This document shows positions 3,953-43,549 of a stretch of 64,000 nucleotides of DNA, piece after piece (position 1 is the stretch's first letter; every line of letters starts with the position of its first letter). This stretch comes from Minisyncoccota bacterium. Its GTDB lineage: Bacteria > Patescibacteriota > Minisyncoccia > UBA6257 > JAGOQP01. The translations under genes and the position numbers were made by a program. The DNA lies in contig JBAZTS010000004.1 in NCBI GenBank assembly GCA_041661795.1, forward strand, positions 6,136 through 70,135, given 5' to 3'. Below the pieces are notes generated by a model. It did not search any database. It saw nothing but the letters and a program-made list of their open reading frames with translations, and was not told the DNA's origin.

Positions 3953-5494
3953 TTAAATCAGATGGTTCAATAAGCTTTGGCCGGACATATCGTCCGGTTT
4001 TTTTATTTCCATTAACTCTAAAATCGTGGGAGCTACGTCGGCCAACATTCCTATGGTGATTTTTTCCTTTTCTTTTATATTAAATTGATCTTGGGGTTTT
4101 TGGAAAATTTTTCCAACTAAATATATCGGAACCGGACTTGGGTCGTGTTTGGTTTCCGGCTCACCCGTTACAGGATTAAACAATCTTTCTACGTTACCAT
4201 GGTCGCTAGTGATAATCACAATTGTATCTTTAGCTAAAGACGATTGGATAATCTTTCCTATCTGCTCGTCTATTATCTCCACCGCTTTTAATGATGCCTG
4301 ATAATTTCCCGTATGAGCTATCATGTCGGGATTAGCAAAATTAACCAATATAAAACTAAAAACTCCTTCTTCTATTGCTTGTATGGTCCTTGTAGTGATA
4401 GCAGGAGCCATCATTTGCGGGTCGTCTTCCTGGCGGGGAATCATTTTGGACGGGATTAAAATACGGTATTCGTTTTCAAAAGGTTTGTCGTCTAAACCGT
4501 TAAAAAAGAAAGTAACATGGGCGTATTTTTGGGTCTCGGCTATTCTCAATTGACTGGCTCCGTTATCCGCTAAAATTTTTCCTAAAGGATTTTTGACTAT
4601 CTGTGGAGGAAAGGCGGTGGGGATTTTATAGTCCTCTCTTATTTGTGTCATTGAGGCGACAAAAATATTTTCAAATTTGTTGGTTTGGAAATAAGCAAAA
4701 TCAGGATTAACAAAAGCCTCGGATATTTGTCTTAAGCGATCTTCTCTAAAATTAAAAAAGAATATAGAGTCATTATTTTCCACCGATCTTTTTTGGGACT
4801 CAATGATTACCGGCATAACAAATTCGTCATTTAGATTTTTGTCGTAAGTTTTTTGGATATGACTTTTTATTCCATCTTCTTTTATAATCTGAGCTTTTCC
4901 GGTTATCGCATCGTAAGTTCTGGCGGTTAAATCCCAGTGCTTGTCTCTATCCATAGCATAATATCTTCCTGAGACGCTTGCGATTTTTTCCTGGGGAAGC
5001 TTGGATATTAACGAAAAAGAAGAGTAAGGAGCGCTGTCTCTTCCGTCAGTAAAAACATGTATAAAATAACCCACCCCTTCTTTTTGGGCTATTTCCATTA
5101 AGGCGGTCAGATGTTCCATAGATGAATGGATATTGGCTTCTCCTATTAATCCCACAAAATGAATGCGAGATTTATTTTTTTTGGCGTGATTAACTGCCGC
5201 AAGCACCGTTTCGTTTTTAAAAAAACTTCTATCTCTTACCGCTAAACTTATTCTGGGAAAATGTTGGTAGATTATTTTTCCGGCCCCCATGGTCAAATGG
5301 CCAACTTCACTGTTTCCTTCTTCCCCCCAAGGAAGACCAACGGCAATGCCGGATGCTTGCAAAGCGCCTGATGGGAAATTATTTTTTATGTATTCTATGT
5401 TTTTGGGTTTGGCGACGTATATTGGGTTTGATTGATTTTCTTGTCCAATGCCCCATCCGTCCAAAACCACTAAAACAACAGGTTTTCTAGCCAT
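3953..5494 (-). CDS. gpmI: 2,3-bisphosphoglycerate-independent phosphoglycerate mutase
   Basis: Full-length iPGM similarity (MARKPVVLVVLDGWG..., metal-binding Ser/His/Asp motifs). The likely start is the internal Met at about 5494, not the ORF-track start at 5560. Confidence 0.88.
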   Translation of the reverse strand: MARKPVVLVVLDGWGIGQENQSNPIYVAKPKNIEYIKNNFPSGALQASGIAVGLPWGEEGNSEVGHLTMGAGKIIYQHFPRISLAVRDRSFFKNETVLAAVNHAKKNKSRIHFVGLIGEANIHSSMEHLTALMEIAQKEGVGYFIHVFTDGRDSAPYSSFSLISKLPQEKIASVSGRYYAMDRDKHWDLTARTYDAITGKAQIIKEDGIKSHIQKTYDKNLNDEFVMPVIIESQKRSVENNDSIFFFNFREDRLRQISEAFVNPDFAYFQTNKFENIFVASMTQIREDYKIPTAFPPQIVKNPLGKILADNGASQLRIAETQKYAHVTFFFNGLDDKPFENEYRILIPSKMIPRQEDDPQMMAPAITTRTIQAIEEGVFSFILVNFANPDMIAHTGNYQASLKAVEIIDEQIGKIIQSSLAKDTIVIITSDHGNVERLFNPVTGEPETKHDPSPVPIYLVGKIFQKPQDQFNIKEKEKITIGMLADVAPTILELMEIKKPDDMSGQSLLNHLI

Positions 5495-5641: not shown

Positions 5642-7168
5642 ATGGAAAACAATTTAGTCGCCTACTTGATAGGCGCGCTGGTTTTTGGTGTGGTTGCGGG
5701 TTATTTTGTCCGTCACTTTTTGGTTTCTCGTCAATCGGCTTCAATCGAGCAGACAACTAAAAGACAGCTTGAAGAAAGCAGGTCAAAGGCCAATGAAATA
5801 GTATTGGAGGCGCAAGAAAAGTCCGCCGGTATTTTGGATGAAATAAAAAAGGAAGAAAAAGAAAGAAAAGTTCAGTTGGATAAGGTTGAAGAAAGATTAA
5901 TGAGGAAAGAAGAATCCTTGGAAAAGGAATCTTCGGATATAAGAGAAAAAGAAAAATCGGTTGTTGTTGATATAGAAAAGATAAATCAGGCCAAATCTTA
6001 TATAGAACAATTAAAAAAAGATCTTTCTTTGCAATTGGAAAAAATTGCCGGCTTGAGCTCTCAAGAGGCAAAAGATTTACTTCTAAAAGAAGTTTCTCAA
6101 AAATATAGGCAAGATATTACCGACTATGTTGGGAAAATGATGAAGGAAAGAAGAGAGGAGATAGAAAAAAAATCCATAGAAATTTTGGCAACTGCCATGC
6201 AAAGATACAGTCGTTCTTCGGCTGCCGAGCTTACAACTACAGCAGTGCCTCTGCCCGATGAAGAATTTAAAGGAAAAATAATAGGAAAAGAAGGAAGAAA
6301 CATAAGAGCTTTTGAAAGATTAACCGGAGTTGAATTAATTATTGACGAAACCCCGGACAGTATTGTAATTTCTTCTTTTGACCCAGTCAGAAGAGAGGTG
6401 GCCAAAAGCGCTTTGGAAAAATTAATAAAAGATGGAAGAATTCAACCGGCCAAGATAGAAGAAAAAGTGGAAGAGGCCACTCAAGAAATTGCCAAGAAAA
6501 TAATGGAAGCCGGAGAAGCGGCCGCTTACGAGGTTGGAGTTTATGATTTACCCAAAGAAATCGTTCAACTTCTTGGACGACTTGCCTATCGTACCAGTTA
6601 TGGTCAAAACGTTTTAAGACATTCGGTAGAAGTTACTCATTTTGCCGGAATGTTAGCCGAAGAGCTTGGTCTTAATGCTGAAATAGCCAAAAGGGGAGCG
6701 CTTTTGCATGACATAGGAAAGTCAATTGACCATGAAGTTCCAGGAAGCCATGTGGATATAGGAAGAAAGATACTCAAAAAATACAATATTGATGAAAGGG
6801 TGATAAATGCCATGGAAGCTCACCATGAGGAGTATCCTTACGCTATTCCCGAGGCCTACGTCGTCTCTACTGCAGACGCTATCTCAGCGGCAAGACCTGG
6901 GGCTAGAAGAGATACCTTGGAAAATTACCTTAAACGCCTGGGGGAATTGGAGCAAATTGCTTCCAGTTTTGAAGGAGTTAAGAATTCATACGCCATTTCG
7001 GCCGGAAGAGAGCTGAGAATATTTGTTGTTCCTGAGAAAATAGACGATTTTGGGGCTTTGGAATTAGCCAGATCAATAGCCAAGAAGGTAGAATCGGAAT
7101 TAAAGTATCCTGGGGAGATAAGAGTAGTGGTAATCAGGGAAACCAGAGCGGTAGAGTATGCTCGCTAA
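5642..7168 (+). CDS. rny: Ribonuclease Y
   Basis: N-terminal TM helix, coiled coil, KH domain (GKIIGKEGRNIRAFE) and HD domain (LLHDIGK...). Confidence 0.9.
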   Translation: MENNLVAYLIGALVFGVVAGYFVRHFLVSRQSASIEQTTKRQLEESRSKANEIVLEAQEKSAGILDEIKKEEKERKVQLDKVEERLMRKEESLEKESSDIREKEKSVVVDIEKINQAKSYIEQLKKDLSLQLEKIAGLSSQEAKDLLLKEVSQKYRQDITDYVGKMMKERREEIEKKSIEILATAMQRYSRSSAAELTTTAVPLPDEEFKGKIIGKEGRNIRAFERLTGVELIIDETPDSIVISSFDPVRREVAKSALEKLIKDGRIQPAKIEEKVEEATQEIAKKIMEAGEAAAYEVGVYDLPKEIVQLLGRLAYRTSYGQNVLRHSVEVTHFAGMLAEELGLNAEIAKRGALLHDIGKSIDHEVPGSHVDIGRKILKKYNIDERVINAMEAHHEEYPYAIPEAYVVSTADAISAARPGARRDTLENYLKRLGELEQIASSFEGVKNSYAISAGRELRIFVVPEKIDDFGALELARSIAKKVESELKYPGEIRVVVIRETRAVEYAR

Positions 7169-24651: not shown

Positions 24652-25047
24652 ATGAACACATACAACTGGTATCAAACATTAATCAAACCCTCCTGGTCTC
24701 CGCCTTCATGGCTTTTCGGACCGGTTTGGACTTTTCTCTACGTTATTATCGCCGCTACCTTCGGCACGGTCTTCTACAAAGCTTTTACCGGAAAATTGCC
24801 CTGGCTTGTTGCCCTCCCCTTTATTCTCAATCTCATTTTTAATCTTGCTTTTACTCCTCTCCAGTTTGGACTTAAGAATAATTTTCTGGCGGCGGTTGAT
24901 ATTCTACTTGTTCTCGGGACTCTGGTTTGGGCATTAGTTGTTATTTATCCTTATGCCAAATGGATTACTTTTGCCAATCTTCCCTATCTTCTTTGGGTTT
25001 TATTTGCCACTGTTTTACAATTAACCATCACCTATCTAAACTGGTAG
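24652..25047 (+). CDS. tspO: TspO/MBR family tryptophan-rich sensory protein
   Basis: 'KPSWSPPSWLFGPVWTFLY' hallmark; five TM helices. Confidence 0.85.
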   Translation: MNTYNWYQTLIKPSWSPPSWLFGPVWTFLYVIIAATFGTVFYKAFTGKLPWLVALPFILNLIFNLAFTPLQFGLKNNFLAAVDILLVLGTLVWALVVIYPYAKWITFANLPYLLWVLFATVLQLTITYLNW

Positions 25048-36863: not shown

Positions 36864-36881
36864 TTTCTTTCTATAAAATGA

Positions 36882-36917
36882 GCACGGCTCGGATGTTTCC
36901 ATCCGAGCCGGTAGTGC
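36882..36917. terminator. Hairpin GCACGGCTCGGA-TGTTTCCA-TCCGAGCCGGT, left boundary of the GC-rich/cassette island (a related copy at 42498..42527)
   Basis: Read directly; it follows the minus-strand GC-rich ORF 36944..37372. Confidence 0.6.
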
Positions 36918-36943
36918 TTTAGGCGTGTGCTTGTTGCGGGGAG

Positions 36944-37372
36944 CTAGAGTTCGTGAGCCCAGGGGGCCCAGATGATCATGGTGGCGTCGTCGATCGTCGG
37001 TTGCTCGTCTGGCGGTCTGGGGGGGATCGCGACGACGACGTTGCCCTCCCTGATGCCCAGTTCGGTAGCGGTTGAATCGAGTTCGGTTCTCAACGACGTC
37101 CAGAAAAAGTCGTTGAGAGTCCGAAACTGACGCCGGTTCCGCTGGATTTTGATGTATGACCGCCTGAAGAAGGAGGCACCACCAAGCGATGCGGTTTCCG
37201 CCGTCAAGCTTTCGATTTCGGCGACGATGAAGCTCATGACCCTCAGGATGGTGGCGAGGTAATCGGGGATTTTACCGATCACCTTCTCACCCTCCTTGAC
37301 GGGGGGAAGCCCGTCGCTCGCCGGGGTTTGTCCGGCCTTTTCCACTAACTCGTCTAACCATGGAATCTGCAT
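36944..37372 (-). CDS. Hypothetical GC-rich protein (142 aa)
   Basis: AAGGAG ribosome-binding site upstream of the ATG. Composition unlike the host backbone. Terminator hairpin downstream. Confidence 0.5.
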   Translation of the reverse strand: MQIPWLDELVEKAGQTPASDGLPPVKEGEKVIGKIPDYLATILRVMSFIVAEIESLTAETASLGGASFFRRSYIKIQRNRRQFRTLNDFFWTSLRTELDSTATELGIREGNVVVAIPPRPPDEQPTIDDATMIIWAPWAHEL

Positions 37373-37441
37373 CGTCCGCTCCTTTCAAAAGTATTTATGT
37401 ATTAACAGAAATTGAAGAAGTTGTCAATAAGATATAACCCA

Positions 37442-37472
37442 GTGTTTTTTGTTTTGGTGTAGGTGATATAAT
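37442..37472 (+). promoter_or_regulatory. Conserved promoter GTGTTTTTTGTTTTGGTGTAGGTGATATAAT (copy 1 of 3), extended -10 TGnTATAAT, ending 6 nt before the ATG
   Basis: Identical or near-identical copies at 39371..39401 and 40558..40588, each 6-8 nt upstream of a start codon (leaderless-type). Confidence 0.65.
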
Positions 37473-37478
37473 AAAAAC

Positions 37479-37712
37479 ATGAGAAAGGAGCCAAAAAAAC
37501 AAAACATTGTCATCTATCAAACTAAAACCGGAGCAATTGAGCTTCGCGGTGATTATTGCAAAAAAACTATTTGGGCAAATCGTATGCAGATGGCCAAGAT
37601 ATTTGGTGTAAATCCTCAAGCAATTTCTAAACATATTCAAAATATCTATCAAGAAAAAGAGTTACAAAGAAAACCAACTAGTTCCATTTTAGAACTAATT
37701 CAAAATGGATAA
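37479..37712 (+). CDS. RhuM/Fic-associated N-terminal DNA-binding-domain-like protein (77 aa, probably a fragment)
   Basis: 'IVIYQTKTGAIELRGDYCKKTIWANRMQMAKIFGVNPQAISKHIQNIY' resembles the N-terminus of RhuM-family proteins. Confidence 0.5.
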   Translation: MRKEPKKQNIVIYQTKTGAIELRGDYCKKTIWANRMQMAKIFGVNPQAISKHIQNIYQEKELQRKPTSSILELIQNG

Positions 37713-37913
37713 TAGTTAATGTAATTATAGATAATCGTTAAACTTTGCCTATCTTTATTTTATATTTACATACATAGATTTTAGATATATCTGAGGGAGT
37801 ATGTGCAAATTTTGCACACAGTATAATACTGTAACTAATTCTTATACCTATCCAACCCACCTACACCAAAAATATGCTTAAGGACCAAATGGCCGAAACG
37901 ATTATCACCAAAT

Positions 37914-37947
37914 AACATCCTTACAAACTCCAGTTTGTAAGGATGTT
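37914..37947. repeat. Perfect palindrome AACATCCTTACAAACTCCAGTTTGTAAGGATGTT (cassette-boundary hairpin)
   Basis: Read directly. It shares the CAAACTCCAGTTTG core with hairpins at 38961 and 39328. Confidence 0.75.
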
Positions 37948-38090
37948 ATTTTACGGCCCAACTTCCCAGTAGTAATCTTTGCTTTACCGCTTGGGAATTG
38001 GGACAGGTAGATTCTTATTATATTTTGACTTCTAAATTGACTAAGTGGTTAAATTGTGTTATCCAATAAGTAGAACTCAAGGAGGAAAGT

Positions 38091-38303
38091 ATGAAGATGG
38101 AGAAGATGACCGATCGGAAACTGGGGCGGAAGGCGATGAAAATTCGCCTGATCGCCGAGACCGAGGAGGAGATGTCACTCCTCACCGAGATCACCTCTCA
38201 GTTGTTAGGAAGGTGGCCGGTTCTAGGAGACAAACTGAAGGATGAGAAGGTTTTCCAGCTTGACGTCACTCTCCGCAAGATGTGGTCAGCTGTTCTCGGC
38301 TGA
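38091..38303 (+). CDS. Hypothetical small GC-rich protein (70 aa), first gene of a three-gene GC-rich module
   Basis: AGGAGGA ribosome-binding site. A TTGACTTCT -35-like element upstream, similar to the other GC-rich modules. Confidence 0.45.
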   Translation: MKMEKMTDRKLGRKAMKIRLIAETEEEMSLLTEITSQLLGRWPVLGDKLKDEKVFQLDVTLRKMWSAVLG

Positions 38304-38350
38304 CGCGAAGCGCTTGCTTAACTTGCTGTATGAACTGAAAGGAGACAGAG

Positions 38351-38617
38351 ATGTGCGGACCACAGTTGGGAATCCCGCTCAACGACCAGACCCTCGCTGA
38401 GATGTCCCAGGAGGAGAGGAACTTCTGGCTGGACTTCCTGGAAGAGGCCTCTGATGTCATCGAGAAAATGGCGGATGAAGAGGCCACTCAGCCATTCACT
38501 CCGCCGGCCTCGCTTCTGTCCAAGTACAACATGGCGGTGGCACGCTATGATGGGCGTGCTTACTGCCAGATCCTCCAACTGGAGGAGATCTTCAACTTCC
38601 ACCAGACCCAGACCTAA
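38351..38617 (+). CDS. Hypothetical small acidic GC-rich protein (88 aa)
   Basis: AAGGAG ribosome-binding site 7 nt upstream. Confidence 0.45.
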   Translation: MCGPQLGIPLNDQTLAEMSQEERNFWLDFLEEASDVIEKMADEEATQPFTPPASLLSKYNMAVARYDGRAYCQILQLEEIFNFHQTQT

Positions 38618-38628
38618 CAAGGAAGGAG

Positions 38629-38826
38629 ATGCCGATGTTTTCAAACAAGAAGTGTCCGAAGTGCGAGAAGTCGTACACGATCCTAGCGACCACGATCTAC
38701 AACGTCCAGTGGTGCTTCTCCCACGGAGAAGCACCCGTCTTCCTGGACAGGACGCTCTGTTGTGGAGCACCTGTCGGGAACTTTCGGGGAGGAGACCCCT
38801 CTTCGACGCTGGTGACCAGCACCTGA
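38629..38826 (+). CDS. Small Cys-rich protein (CPKC...YNVQW...RTLCCGAP), paralog of 42236..42424
   Basis: Clear amino-acid similarity to ORF 42236 (KKCPKCEKSYTILATTIYNVQWCFSHGEAPVFLDRTLCCGAPV vs KEKCPKCGQTCGMAITVYNIQWVRENGERPVYLSRTLCCGSPM). Ribosome-binding site present. Confidence 0.6.
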   Translation: MPMFSNKKCPKCEKSYTILATTIYNVQWCFSHGEAPVFLDRTLCCGAPVGNFRGGDPSSTLVTST

Positions 38827-38960
38827 TCAACTCTCCAACTACTTAAGTACAACCAGGGCAGTTTCACTGCCTCGACCGCCGCGGCCAACCCCCGCGGCGG
38901 ATCTTTTTTATAAAGAAATATAATTTTGATTTTCATCGCTAATCTTGGCCTATCTTTTCC

Positions 38961-39000
38961 ACATAACATATCAACAAACTGGAGTTTGTTGATATGTTAT
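38961..39000. repeat. Perfect palindrome CATAACATATCAACAAACTGGAGTTTGTTGATATGTTATG (cassette-boundary hairpin)
   Basis: Read directly. Same stem as 39328..39365, with the loop inverted. Confidence 0.75.
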
Positions 39001-39026
39001 GTGTGGGGATGTATAATATACAGAAT

Positions 39027-39311
39027 ATGGAAAAGCTAAAAACCGCCGAACAAATGGAGAGGCATCTTAAAGGAATGGCCAATCATTACCGGATTGAAAT
39101 TTTACTTCTTTTAGATTCCAGCGACGGCATAACTCTTGACGCTATTATAAAAGCAATGGATGCTGACCCAAGAACAATAGGGGAACACGCTAGACGTCTC
39201 TACAATGCCGGCTTGGTTGATAAAAAATATAGGGGCAGATTTATGGAGTATAAACTCTCTCCCTATGGGAAAAAATTTGTTTCTTTTTTAAAATCTTTTC
39301 AGCGTGTCTAA
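39027..39311 (+). CDS. ArsR/SmtB-family winged-helix transcriptional regulator
   Basis: 'MANHYRIEILLLLDSSDGITLDAIIKAM' HTH_20 pattern. Start chosen at the internal Met after the hairpin. Confidence 0.6.
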   Translation: MEKLKTAEQMERHLKGMANHYRIEILLLLDSSDGITLDAIIKAMDADPRTIGEHARRLYNAGLVDKKYRGRFMEYKLSPYGKKFVSFLKSFQRV

Positions 39312-39327
39312 TTTAAATTCTTTAATT

Positions 39328-39365
39328 ACAACATATCAACAAACTCCAGTTTGTTGATATGTTGT
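39328..39365. repeat. Perfect palindrome ACAACATATCAACAAACTCCAGTTTGTTGATATGTTGT
   Basis: Read directly. Confidence 0.75.
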
Positions 39366-39370
39366 TTTGG

Positions 39371-39401
39371 GTGTTTTTTGTTTTGGTGTAAGTGATATAA
39401 T
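39371..39401 (+). promoter_or_regulatory. Conserved promoter GTGTTTTTTGTTTTGGTGTAAGTGATATAAT (copy 2)
   Basis: One-nt variant of the 37442 and 40558 copies; it ends 8 nt before the GNAT ATG. Confidence 0.65.
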
Positions 39402-39409
39402 TAGTTTAA

Positions 39410-39871
39410 ATGAAAATAAAAATTAGGAAAGCAAAATTAGAGGAGCTAAAAAAGATTGTTAATGTAACCAGTAAAGCATTTGACGATCCGTTTGATCCTA
39501 AGGGCTACATAAGGAAAGACAAAGAGTATTATAAAGATTTAGTAGCGCCGTTTAAAGATAAAAAATTTGGTATTTTTGTTGCGGTCTATAACGATAAAAT
39601 AATAGGAGTTCAGCGATTTGAATTTATAAAAAACAATATAAATCTATTTCGGCTTGGTGTGTTAAAGTCATTTAGAAACAAAGGCGTGGCTCCGGCTTTG
39701 ATAAAAAGAACCGAATCCGAAGGTAAAAAGAAAAACTGCAAGAAGATAACTCTGATGTGTATTGAAGAAAAGGGATTGACTCCTTACTATAAAAAAATTG
39801 GTTTTAGGGTGGATAAGATAAAGAAGCATCGAGATCATCACGATGTTTTTATGTCTAAGTCCATAAACTAA
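39410..39871 (+). CDS. GNAT-family N-acetyltransferase
   Basis: 'IGVQRFEF...FRLGVLKSFRNKGVAPALIKR' acetyl-CoA-binding motif A (R/Q-x-x-G-x-G/A). Confidence 0.7.
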   Translation: MKIKIRKAKLEELKKIVNVTSKAFDDPFDPKGYIRKDKEYYKDLVAPFKDKKFGIFVAVYNDKIIGVQRFEFIKNNINLFRLGVLKSFRNKGVAPALIKRTESEGKKKNCKKITLMCIEEKGLTPYYKKIGFRVDKIKKHRDHHDVFMSKSIN

Positions 39872-39895: not shown

Positions 39896-40038
39896 GAGTG
39901 TTTTTTGGTTTAAGTTGACTTCTGTGATTTATGTGATATAACTATGGCAGAATTGTAGTCAATCGAAGTTTTGCACCAAACTGTCTGTGAACAGAAGGGG
40001 CGGTGTAAAACACTGCTCTTTCACAAGAAAAGGAGAAA
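39896..40038 (+). promoter_or_regulatory. Promoter (TTGACT ... TGTGATATAAC) plus conserved roughly 100-nt 5' leader of GC-rich module 1; homologous to 41903..42033
   Basis: About 75-80% identity to the leader at 41903-42033, including 'AATCGAAGTT(T/C)TGCAC' and 'CTGCTCTTTCACAAGAAAAGG(A/G)GA'. Alternative pairings GTGAACAG/CTGCTCTTTCAC and GAAAGAGC/GCTCTTTC preserve a hairpin. Confidence 0.55.
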
Positions 40039-40411
40039 TATGTCTCAGGCAAAGTGTAGTTCTTGCCAACGCGTTTTCGAACCGTCTGTCTCGTTCGACT
40101 TCTACCCGAAGCCGACTCCGAAGGATCCAGACGCCGGTTTGTGCGAGAGCTGTCTCATGAGAGGGATCTTCCAGGAGACGGCGCGCGACCCGGTCCCGGT
40201 TCCCAACGGACACGAGACGAGCGTCTGCAAGAAGGGACAGGGAGAACTGACCTGTAGCTTTTTGGGTCTCTCTTCCAGGGACGGGCACCTCGTCTACGAG
40301 TGCCTGAAGGGAAGCTCCTTGGAATCGGCCATCAGAGGGCGGCTTCGGGAGGGCTCCATGAAGTCCAAGGGGGACAACTGCTCCGGACCCCCCGACTTCC
40401 GGGCCAACTGA
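40039..40411 (+). CDS. Cys-rich protein (124 aa), apparently a fusion of domains homologous to ORFs 42034 and 42236
   Basis: The N-terminus 'CSSCQRV..YP..P.DPDAGLCESC' resembles 42034 'CDVCCYRR..YPVDP...C'. The C-terminus 'CKKGQGELTCSF..' resembles 42236 'CPKCGQTCGM'. Ribosome-binding site AAGGAG. Confidence 0.5.
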
Positions 40412-40557
40412 CCATCTCTCTCACAAAGCACAACCAGGCAGAACAAAACTGCCACTTGACCGCCACGGCTCACCCCGTGGCGTTCTGCTTTTGTAAAAAT
40501 ATTTTTTGGTTTCTCTTATTTTCTAATTCGTACGAATAGGTAAATAGAAAAATTGGG

Positions 40558-40588
40558 GTGTTTTTTGTTTTGGTGTAGGTGATATAAT
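40558..40588 (+). promoter_or_regulatory. Conserved promoter GTGTTTTTTGTTTTGGTGTAGGTGATATAAT (copy 3)
   Basis: Identical to 37442..37472; it ends 6 nt before the NYN-gene ATG. Confidence 0.65.
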
Positions 40589-40594
40589 ATAAAT

Positions 40595-41095
40595 ATGAGA
40601 ATAGAAGGAAATAATTGTGCCTATATTGATGGAGCTAACTTGCACAATGGTGTTGCCAGCTTAGGTTGGAATCTTGATTATAAAAAATTTAGAGTATGGT
40701 TATCGGAAAAATATTCAATAAAAAACGCCTATATTTTTATAGGACTCATTTCTAAGTACAAAGAACTTTATAAATATTTACAGGAGTGCGGATTTACTCT
40801 TATTTTTAAAGAGGTGATTTATGATGGAAACGGTAAGCCAAAAGGAAATTGTGACGCTGATTTAGTTTTACAATCTACTCGCGATGCTTATGAAAACAAA
40901 TTTGATAGATCAATTATTGTTACAAGCGATGGAGATTACGCTGGATTAGTAAAATTTCTTCAAGAAAAACAAAAGTTATTAGTCATTCTATCTCCCAACA
41001 ATCAGGAAAGGTGCTCGATTCTTCTTAAAAGAACTGGCGTCAAAATAGCTTACATAAATGACCAGCGTTCTATATTGGGGACTTCTGTAAAATAA
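40595..41095 (+). CDS. NYN-domain (LabA-like) putative ribonuclease
   Basis: 'AYIDGANL...D.ADL.L..........SDGDYAGLVKFL' NYN/DUF88 pattern. Confidence 0.65.
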   Translation: MRIEGNNCAYIDGANLHNGVASLGWNLDYKKFRVWLSEKYSIKNAYIFIGLISKYKELYKYLQECGFTLIFKEVIYDGNGKPKGNCDADLVLQSTRDAYENKFDRSIIVTSDGDYAGLVKFLQEKQKLLVILSPNNQERCSILLKRTGVKIAYINDQRSILGTSVK

Positions 41096-41841: not shown

Positions 41842-41902
41842 TTTATTGTCTCAAAACAGGGCTCTTGGAGCCCTGTTTTTTTTACATAAAAATGTTTGTT
41901 GT

Positions 41903-42033
41903 TATTTTGACATCTGTGACTTATGTGGTACAACTTGAGCAAGATTGTAATCAATCGAAGTTCTGCACTAAACGCTGTTTATCGAAAGAGCGGTGCGGGA
42001 CTTGCTCTTTCACAAGAAAAGGGAGGAAAGAAA
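41903..42033 (+). promoter_or_regulatory. Promoter (TTGACA ... TGGTACAAC) plus conserved 5' leader of GC-rich module 2
   Basis: Homologous to 39896..40038. Confidence 0.55.
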
Positions 42034-42219
42034 ATGCTTCCAGCATGTGACGTGTGTTGTTACCGAAGAGATATCTGGCGTATTTACCCCGTTGATCCTC
42101 GGAAACAAAAGTTGTCTCACAATCGCTATGCCTGCGATCTTCACAAGAGCGAAGTGATCTCGCGGGTGAAGTCCAGTACTGCGTGGCCCAACTTCGAGGT
42201 GATCGTCGAGAAGATCTGA
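42034..42219 (+). CDS. Small Cys-rich zinc-ribbon-like protein (61 aa)
   Basis: GGGAGG ribosome-binding site; 'CDVCC...C..H' pattern. Homologous to the N-terminal half of 40039..40411. Confidence 0.5.
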   Translation: MLPACDVCCYRRDIWRIYPVDPRKQKLSHNRYACDLHKSEVISRVKSSTAWPNFEVIVEKI

Positions 42220-42235
42220 AGGAAAGGAGAAACAA

Positions 42236-42424
42236 ATGCCGAAGAAGGAGAAGTGTCCCAAGTGCGGGCAAACGTGTGGGATGGCCATCACGGTCTATAA
42301 CATCCAATGGGTGCGTGAGAACGGGGAGCGTCCGGTGTATCTTTCCCGGACGCTCTGCTGCGGCTCACCGATGAGGGGATTCTGGGGAGAGAATTTCCCC
42401 CTGGTGCCGGGATCCAGCCCCTAG
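42236..42424 (+). CDS. Small Cys-rich protein (CPKC...YNIQW...RTLCCGSP), paralog of 38629..38826
   Basis: AAGGAG ribosome-binding site; paralogy as above. Confidence 0.6.
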   Translation: MPKKEKCPKCGQTCGMAITVYNIQWVRENGERPVYLSRTLCCGSPMRGFWGENFPLVPGSSP

Positions 42425-42497
42425 TTCTTTCGCTGTCGTACATTACCGGTCAGGCATCTCGCCTGACCGGTTTCGCTTCAAAAACTCACCCAAAATA

Positions 42498-42527
42498 AAG
42501 CACGGCTCGGAAAATCCGAGCCGGTGA
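42498..42527. terminator. Hairpin GCACGGCTCGGA-AAA-TCCGAGCCGGTG, right boundary of the GC-rich modules (a related copy at 36882..36917)
   Basis: Read directly. Confidence 0.6.
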
Positions 42528-42626
42528 TATTGTTGATGTGTTAATGTGGTTTGTGAGTTGTGCTTTCTATGTTACAATCAATGTCCCGGTCGAGTGATTA
42601 TTTCTAATTTTGTTTAAAAATATTTT

Positions 42627-43221: not shown

Positions 43222-43282
43222 ATTATTTTTTGATATAATTAAATCAGTTCGCTAAATCTTCTGCGAACCAAAAGGAGGCAGT

Positions 43283-43426
43283 ATGCCAGTTTGGTGTAAT
43301 AAGCACAACAAGGAGGTGAAGAAGAAGGACAGGGCGCGATGCTACAGGTTGGGGTGCTCGTGGCTGTCGTTCATCTTGCGACGAAAGAGCAGGAGAATCA
43401 GTCGGAGTAGCAGAAGGTAAGCACAT
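43283..43426 (+). CDS. Small Arg/Lys-rich GC-rich ORF (47 aa), tentative
   Basis: AAGGAGG ribosome-binding site 6 nt upstream; GC-rich. A hairpin terminator (AGGCCTGCGT-TTGGGG-ACGCAGGCCT) follows at about 43460-43490. Confidence 0.3.
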
Positions 43427-43549
43427 CTCGTCTCGCGGGTAACACCGTCGGGACGTCAGTAAGGCCTGCGTTTGGGGACGCAGGCCTTGTAAAATATACA
43501 CTTGCGTGAGCGAGTGATTTTTGTTATAATATAAATAAGGAGGTGTGAG

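Follow-up and report, generated by a model that had tools for sequence, protein, structure and literature searches.

In the chromosome of a Minisyncoccota bacterium (contig JBAZTS010000004.1, assembly GCA_041661795.1), a 64-kb stretch, hereafter the window, carries three perfect palindromes between short gene units, two of which enclose a gene for a small winged helix-turn-helix (wHTH) protein. The question raised by this locus is what these palindromes are, and what ties them to the enclosed gene. Based on comparison with other Patescibacteria loci (designated by L numbers), we propose, with a probability of about three in four, that the palindromes are operators of the 94-aa wHTH protein and that the copy in front of its gene mediates autorepression. 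The initial annotation described perfect palindromes of 34-40 nt; all three exist and proved to be a little longer. P1 (37910-37951; arms 37910-37929 and 37932-37951, 20-2-20) is a solitary site, P2 (38960-39003; arms 38960-38980 and 38983-39003, 21-2-21) lies upstream of the wHTH gene, and P3 (39328-39365; arms 39328-39345 and 39348-39365, 18-2-18) begins 17 nt downstream of its stop codon. None of the three is assigned to a strand, and the complementarity of the arms is 100% in each. The core CAAACTSSAGTTTG occurs in exactly three copies in the window, as compared with 0.04 copies expected from shuffles. The 32-nt core of P1 (37915-37946) reads ACATCCTTACAAACT-CC-AGTTTGTAAGGATGT, which is the family consensus, and an identical core is present in dozens of Patescibacteria loci. 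P2 (core 38966-38997, an ATATCA variant with a GG centre) and P3 (core 39331-39362, with a CC centre) have a common arm, ACATATCAACAAACT, and differ in the centre alone, and are thus, as annotated, one element in opposite orientations. A 32-nt weight matrix trained on independent, protein-ascertained sites assigns 51.2 bits to P1 and 28.2 bits to both P2 and P3; the next-best position in the window scores -1.9 bits, shuffled DNA (1.24 Mb) reaches 4.7 bits at most, and P1-P3 are the sole matches within 64 kb.

The gene flanked by P2 and P3 (39027-39311, plus strand) encodes an ArsR/SmtB-like winged-helix regulator of 94 aa. Its predicted promoter (38989-39017, plus strand), which consists of the -35 box TTGATA (38989-38994), a 17-bp spacer and the -10 box TATAAT (39012-39017), is the best promoter-like match in the 36.8-43.6 kb region, with 11 out of 12 positions in agreement. 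The -35 box sits inside the right arm of P2, so that an inverted repeat with a short centre overlaps the promoter of the regulator itself. The ATG lies 9 nt downstream of the -10 box, and thus the mRNA appears to be near-leaderless. The AlphaFold2 (AF2) model of the protein (pLDDT 86) has an ArsR/MarR winged-helix topology, with helices at residues 7-31, 37-44 and 48-60, strands at 64-69 and 72-77, and a further helix at 79-93; the recognition helix, the β-hairpin wing and the C-terminal helix are all present. Foldseek matches of the model include MarR proteins, CadC, HlyU, SqrR, SmtB, CzrA and the centromere-binding protein AspA (root-mean-square deviation of 1.0 over 73 residues), and a family profile compared with the PDB retrieves HlyU (2.3e-6) and chains of ArsR, CadC and SmtB. 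Pfam matches of the window protein to MarR, HTH_20 and HTH_5 are weak, and a precomputed PF01022 annotation is found on many homologues. The protein lacks Cys, contains conserved His13, His20, His54 and His75, and has no recognisable metal site; no nuclease or transposase domain was detected in it by Pfam, the AF2 model or Foldseek.

The arrangement of the wHTH gene between two sites is widely conserved. When the DNA pattern ATNNNNACAAACTNNAGTTTGTNNNNAT, for which we estimate ~9 chance matches, was run against one genome from each GTDB species, at least 119 loci were returned. Among the matches listed, ~95 are from Patescibacteria, with genomes labelled as Taylor-, Nomura-, Vogel-, Sung-, Jorgensen-, Lloyd-, Yanofsky-, Wolfe-, Taga-, Moran-, Staskawicz- and Zambryskibacteria, along with metagenome-assembled genomes (MAGs) labelled as Saccharibacteria. 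The positions that the pattern leaves free are still conserved, (A)CAT[C/A]C[T/C][T/A]ACAAACT, and therefore it is the arm sequence that is conserved, not merely the pairing. Also among the matches listed, 27 loci encode a homologue of the window protein with 60-72% identity (tblastn), and one upstream and one downstream site are found in all 27. The same site-gene-site architecture was observed in 81 loci fetched by the protein alone. The protein family comprises at least 1312 clusters (90% identity, E<=1e-5), or 135 clusters at 50% identity and E<=1e-10, and all clusters with a named source belong to Patescibacteria or to unclassified 'bacterium' MAGs. In the dereplicated set over all loci, which includes 103 distinct homologues from Patescibacteria genomes and metagenomes, the 32-bp motif is present upstream of all 103, and just after the stop codon in 80 out of 88 loci. 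The centre of the upstream site is most often at -32 from the ATG; the downstream sites start at the stop codon or inside it, their centres are ~+16 to +18 past it, and the median distance between both sites of the module is 338 bp (365 bp from P2 to P3). The upstream consensus, aACATCCTTAyAAACT-TG-AGAATGTAAGGATGTtGTG-TATAAT-N6-ATG, places TATAAT 6-7 nt before the ATG. In the homologous loci, the -35 hexamer (TTGAGA) forms the centre of the site, with the -10 box 16-17 bp on and the ATG at the expected transcription start; the predicted module promoter is thus leaderless and fully covered by the site. P2 of the window is a variant of this arrangement that is shifted 13 nt upstream, with the -35 box provided by the ATATCA-type arm. 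No description of this motif or regulator was found in the literature searched. The contig ORMF011226306.1 (176 kb; L188 and L191) contains two wHTH modules ~43 kb apart with near-identical flanks. Outside the Patescibacteria, at least 10 contigs of the Clostridia MAG JAZUOX01 (L005, L012, L014, L024, L064, L065, L086, L091, L103 and L105) contain an unrelated repeat, AAATGGCTACAAACTnnAGTTTGTAGCCATTT, whose flanks are conserved; these Clostridia matches were rejected as copies of the same element, since only a 7-nt core is common to them and the Patescibacteria site.

The specificity of the sites follows the type of the protein. Each site consists of four ACAnnCT units, arranged as a direct pair in each arm, with the arms inverted around a 2-bp centre. 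Some loci encode, often near the A-type gene, a B-type paralogue that is ~50% identical to the A-type protein. All six true B-type genes are bracketed on both sides by ACATTCTnACATTCT-NN-AGAATGTnAGAATGT (ACATTCT..AGAATGT), whose core is ACATTCT and not ACAAACT, whereas the sites on A-type genes are A-type or A/B hybrids in 160 out of 171 cases. Residue 52, a Gly in A-type and a Ser in B-type proteins, may be among those that read the AA/TT positions. This covariation between proteins and sites, although comparative, is the strongest argument that the palindrome is recognised by the protein that it brackets. The A/B hybrids make up about half of all sites and contain two A.A mismatches next to the loop of the potential hairpin; therefore, a duplex binding site fits better than a structural element. 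Neither a B-type gene nor a B-type site is present in the window. Protein-binding sites had been one of the options offered in the initial annotation, and the comparison of loci lends it strong backing.

The same data bear on the notion that the palindromes act as RNA hairpins, i.e., as terminators, processing sites or 3'-end stabilisers. Their predicted hairpin energies range from -22 to -32 kcal/mol, a T-rich run (TTTTGGGTGTTTTTTGTTTTGG) directly follows P3, and the downstream sites start right at the stop codon, all of which would suit such a role. However, hairpin energies of this size are expected of every perfect palindrome, the upstream sites, P2 included, all lie ahead of the transcription start with the -35 box inside them, and no consistent T-run follows the downstream sites in 80 loci. 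The evident terminators of this region are GC-rich hairpins with T-runs, flagged at 38876, 40461, 41853 and 42826 by a scan that left the palindromes unflagged. In addition, the A.A mismatches of the hybrid sites are not compensatory changes, and an Rfam scan of the window identified only tRNAs and tmRNA, with no match at the palindromes. We therefore consider an RNA-level function extremely improbable, and the option of RNA-processing sites is not supported. The earlier remark that the palindromes lack a U-run holds for P1 and P2 and fails for P3, and the view that they are unlikely to be simple intrinsic terminators is borne out by the terminator scan and by the downstream sites.

In the proposed mechanism, the wHTH protein, acting presumably as one or two dimers, would recognise the 32-bp four-unit site. 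Because P2 overlaps the -35 box, the protein bound to P2 would block RNA polymerase there, which would result in negative autoregulation. P3 would reinforce or insulate this autoregulation, either by cooperating or looping with P2 or by acting as a roadblock that stops read-through, and may also influence the adjacent promoter of a GNAT acetyltransferase gene, while P1 would be an isolated site of the regulon type that was left behind next to a RhuM-like gene fragment. Sequence comparison establishes that sites and gene go together, how the promoter is arranged and that each paralogue has sites of its own; binding, the sign of regulation, the stoichiometry, the role of P3 and an inducing signal are the parts that we infer.

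Operators of the ArsR/SmtB family are N-2-N inverted repeats (12-2-12 in SmtB and CzrA) at autoregulated promoters. The system described here resembles the ArsR/SmtB autorepressors SmtB, CzrA, CadC, HlyU and SdpR in having a small winged-helix protein of ~100 aa, similar in sequence and fold, and an inverted-repeat operator with a 2-bp centre that overlaps its own promoter. It differs from them in a longer site (15-2-15 or more, with four ACAnnCT units), in the second copy right after the stop codon in ~90% of loci, in the position of the -35 box at the site centre combined with a leaderless mRNA, in the lack of Cys and of a recognisable metal site together with scores below the curated cut-offs, and in the occurrence of sites inside coding regions. 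The fold and the operator arrangement are those of an ArsR/SmtB-type autorepressor, and the sequence qualifies only marginally. We regard the system as conventional in kind, although uncharacterised, and as unusual in its layout. To our knowledge, transcriptional regulation has hardly been explored in Patescibacteria (the candidate phyla radiation, CPR), most members of which are uncultured. The locus yields a widely conserved candidate regulator-operator pair, a 32-bp motif, a predicted leaderless promoter architecture and paralogue-specific sites, and this predicted pair offers an entry into CPR gene regulation that is testable in vitro and needs no culturing. The bracketing layout and the in-frame copies described below are unusual and, if functional, would bear on how compact genomes place regulatory or barrier sites.

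A candidate regulon, which includes TspO, MnmA, SWIM, NYN, RhuM and other genes, is suggested by the sites that lie apart from the wHTH module. Around 83 protein-ascertained genes, 393 kb of sequence contain 159 bracketing sites and 28 further ones (~7 extra sites per 100 kb), and 24 out of these 28 are co-oriented with the wHTH gene, the orientation of a site being defined by its asymmetric centre. Forward-oriented sites precede TspO in 18 out of 19 cases, the SWIM-domain gene in 6 out of 6, MnmA in 5 out of 5, a gene for a small membrane plus wHTH protein in 5 out of 5, and MGMT-like genes in 3 out of 3. Genes for NYN-domain and RhuM proteins also recur downstream of sites, and RhuM adjoins them in L059, L141, L182 and L188. 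Among solitary sites that face a gene start, 37 are forward only vs. 18 reverse only (p=0.014). The other neighbours of sites are mostly heterogeneous (102-111 singleton clusters); with such heterogeneous neighbours and few recurring families, a single-function regulon was rejected. The TspO/MBR gene of the window itself (24652-25047) is located in a GC-richer block and has no site, weak ones included, though TspO is the commonest target-like neighbour elsewhere, and a link between the sites and this gene was likewise rejected.

Several observations weigh against operators with autorepression. The window protein fails to reach the curated cut-off of either Pfam HTH_5 (17.6 vs. 22 bits) or the NCBIfam ArsR/SmtB model NF033788 (2.7e-9; 36.7 vs. 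55). P3 does not overlap the core promoter of the GNAT gene, and P1 has no obvious target gene. Among 104 solitary sites, 42 are without a gene start within 130 nt, and a -10 box at canonical spacing accompanies only 9% of solitary sites. At the weakly conserved positions 4-8, both arms of a given site match each other in 56-65% of cases, as compared with 29-37% upon shuffling and with 38% when the arms come from two separate sites of one locus, a degree of agreement beyond the need of a simple dimer site. The palindromy extends at least 5 nt past the conserved motif in 19% of solitary sites. In other genomes, 12-14 solitary sites are in frame inside conserved genes. The downstream site is unaccounted for by a plain operator model when the next gene is convergent; it is kept in 20 out of 23 loci with a convergent next gene and in 47 out of 51 with a co-directional one. 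The downstream site is thus kept whatever the next gene, and therefore its role is tied to the regulator gene itself.

The persistence of the downstream site would also be expected if the palindromes were barrier or organising sites, i.e., roadblocks for replication forks or transcription, as in RTP-Ter, or sites of the centromere or nucleoid type, as in AspA and ParB-parS. The many solitary sites at gene ends or inside genes, the four-unit structure suggestive of more than one dimer per site, and the presence of AspA among the fold matches point in the same direction. By analogy, both RTP-Ter of B. subtilis and the archaeal AspA centromere involve a small winged-helix dimer and composite palindromes beside its own gene, with more than one dimer per site, and the likeness to the present locus would be one of fold and layout only. 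On the other hand, the upstream site always falls on the -35 box, the AspA match is generic for winged-helix proteins, no ParA-like partition partner was found among the neighbours scanned, and the cumulative GC skew climbs steadily over the window and shows no switch of the terminus type at the locus. A barrier function is thus very unlikely in our view.

The main rival explanation for the palindromes is a selfish or mobile element, similar to the repetitive extragenic palindromic (REP) sequences and REPINs or to the Rickettsia palindromic elements, which spreads as a unit and for which the wHTH gene would be a partner and the use in promoters secondary. The flanking of the wHTH gene by two copies, with other copies dispersed, is compatible with this explanation, as are the agreement of arms within sites over that between neighbouring sites and the extended palindromy described above. 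The in-frame copies are of particular relevance here. The intragenic sites are always read in the frame HPYKLEFVRM, lie in variable loops and add 10-12 residues. They were found in TsaD (L052, L088 and L104; the orthologue in L040 is without a site), TsaC (L047 and L111), MnmA (L123; the orthologues in L177, L017 and L060 are without a site), YchF (L084) and TspO (L003, L165, L177 and L150). None of P1, P2 and P3 is intragenic. Finally, L176 and L151 have the same flanks around a single site in one case and a site-gene-site unit in the other, which is the outcome expected from recombination between 32-bp repeats; no recombinase was linked to this difference. As a separate observation, L176 contains a truncated extra copy of the module after the site at 2450.

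Several facts speak against a mobile palindrome: the 94-aa protein is devoid of a nuclease or transposase domain, the copy number is low (3 in 64 kb, and ~7 extra sites per 100 kb even near the gene), and, unlike the species-specific REPs, the motif is found conserved in many lineages of Patescibacteria. Moreover, the promoter geometry and the orientation bias indicate a regulatory function, and only 2 matches to the palindrome were found in 2.9 million viral contigs, on which ground a phage or mobile-element origin was rejected. The REP/RAYT systems (REPtrons and REPINs) also have a gene between two palindrome copies and other copies dispersed, many of them at gene ends; however, the bracketed gene here encodes a winged-helix DNA-binding protein and not an HUH Y1 (IS200/IS605-like) transposase, and the low copy number, the multi-lineage motif and the promoter function set the present sites apart. 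The REP-type copy number of tens to hundreds per genome is here compared with partial sequence, namely 3 copies in 64 kb and 28 extra ones in 393 kb. Abundant REP-like copies scattered at random, which the initial annotation named as the finding that would overturn its idea, were not observed; the copies are few and tied to the regulator gene. The Rickettsia palindromic elements are likewise in-frame palindromes in conserved genes that are absent from some orthologues, as seen here in other genomes; the differences are their length of 100-150 bp vs. 32 bp, the tie of the present sites to a specific putative binding protein, and the absence of copies inside genes in this window. Template-switch correction of quasi-palindromes is a known mutational process and can yield both the homogenisation of arms and the extension of palindromes. 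The arm agreement, the palindrome extension, the L176/L151 unit and the in-frame copies could thus reflect copying of whole sites or, equally, template-switch correction together with recombination between 32-bp repeats. Taken together, a selfish palindrome with secondary promoter use is unlikely. A related idea, to which we assign a low but real probability, is that the palindrome and the wHTH gene form a new self-propagating protein-site pair in Patescibacteria whose operator use was co-opted; by analogy with REP-RAYT pairs, but in this case with no transposase, the palindrome could be copied as a unit between genes and in frame into loops of housekeeping genes, and the protein, as its dedicated partner, could serve in silencing, roadblocking or host-aided mobilisation.

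The surroundings of the palindromes are of mixed composition. The window is an AT-rich chromosomal segment (~36% GC) with tRNAs and tmRNA, and a type I restriction-modification system is located upstream of the palindromes. The region at ~36.9-43.5 kb is a mosaic of AT-rich genes and GC-rich blocks of small open reading frames (ORFs). Such palindromes between short gene units of a mosaic region, along with a site-gene-site unit that is present in one locus and absent from another, recall the attC sites of an integron-type cassette array. The anatomy of the sites does not agree with this comparison: they are perfectly symmetric, with no extrahelical bases, no R/L boxes and no GTTRRRY box. No integrase or other recombinase was found among the ORFs scanned at 22.8-50.4 kb and at the window start, which are part of the window ORFs. 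The gene units come with promoters and terminators of their own, copies of the element are also found beside and within housekeeping genes, and no relatives of the GC-rich units adjoin sites elsewhere. Integron attC sites, which the initial annotation had put forward together with a possible recombinase, are contradicted by the site anatomy and by the lack of a recombinase in the scanned ORFs, and retain next to no probability. Its description of palindromes that separate cassettes is valid in part, as illustrated by the L176/L151 difference and by the co-oriented sites that precede recurring genes; what P2 and P3 bracket, on the other hand, is one specific conserved regulator gene and not arbitrary cassettes.

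Among the neighbouring genes, the GNAT acetyltransferase gene (39410-39871, plus strand; Pfam Acetyltransf_10 and Acetyltransf_1) is a possible target of P3, and GNAT genes are not recurrent neighbours of sites in other genomes. It is preceded by a promoter module, termed D2, at 39371-39401 (plus strand; GTGTTTTTTGTTTTGGTGTAAGTGATATAAT, with an extended -10 box). P3 lies just upstream of this copy, with its centre ~60 nt upstream of the expected transcription start of the GNAT gene. The D2 module GTGTTTTTTGTTTTGGTGTAGGTGATATAAT (extended -10 box, with the ATG 7-8 nt on) has three copies in the window, 37442-37472, 39371-39401 and 40558-40588, which precede three unrelated genes, namely a RhuM-like fragment, the GNAT gene and an NYN gene. 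The module is absent from the other compared loci, and, judging from these copies, it looks like a case of promoter propagation within this genome. The RhuM-like fragment (37479-37712, plus strand) is an N-terminal piece of 77 aa that corresponds to residues 4-85 of the 346-aa L059 protein (tblastn) and is matched by PADLOC PDC-S05; the NYN gene (40595-41095) belongs to a family that recurs next to sites elsewhere. A relic of a D2-type promoter core, TTTTGGTGTAGGTG, is found downstream of P1 on the minus strand (37858-37871). Because of this relic, P1 may be the remnant of a decayed site-plus-promoter unit in a rearranged stretch, and the sequence suggests that P1 was once part of such a unit.

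Five GC-rich blocks, 36870-37390 (minus strand), 38040-38910, 39980-40500, 41970-42530 and 43230-43500, have a GC content of ~50-55% against a background of 36%, and contain small ORFs led by Shine-Dalgarno sequences, each block with its own promoter and GC-hairpin terminator. Two blocks have a common 72-nt promoter/leader (39910-39981 and 41902-41973), and two encode paralogous CxxC mini-proteins (38629-38826 and 42236-42424). The one located between P1 and P2 is an ORFan with no relative among 5.8 billion proteins, and the GC-rich blocks have no DNA relatives in the 202 Patescibacteria loci. A terminator-like hairpin on the minus strand, CGGCTCGGA...TCCGAGCCG, which continues into TGCT and a T-rich tail, is present at 36885-36910 and 42503-42523, and these two copies are at the ends of a 5.6-kb mosaic that holds all three palindromes. 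A palindromic motif, ..ATTCGTACGAATAGGTAAATA, is located upstream of the NYN promoter (40517-40546) and also adjoins wHTH sites in two Nomurabacteria loci (L059, ~5100-5133, and L079, ~6352-6384).

A separate pair of palindromes had also been noted at the start of the window, and it is real. The near-perfect palindromes ATTATGTCCnAnGTAnCGA|TCGnTACnTnGGACATAAT at 985-1036 and 1676-1731 flank the ORF 1054-1656, which encodes a PaaX-like protein with a PaaX_M / Cas2-like domain. No further copies of these palindromes were found in the 202 loci or in the viral contigs. The PaaX-like gene thus has the same layout as the wHTH module, i.e., a regulator between two palindromes of its own.

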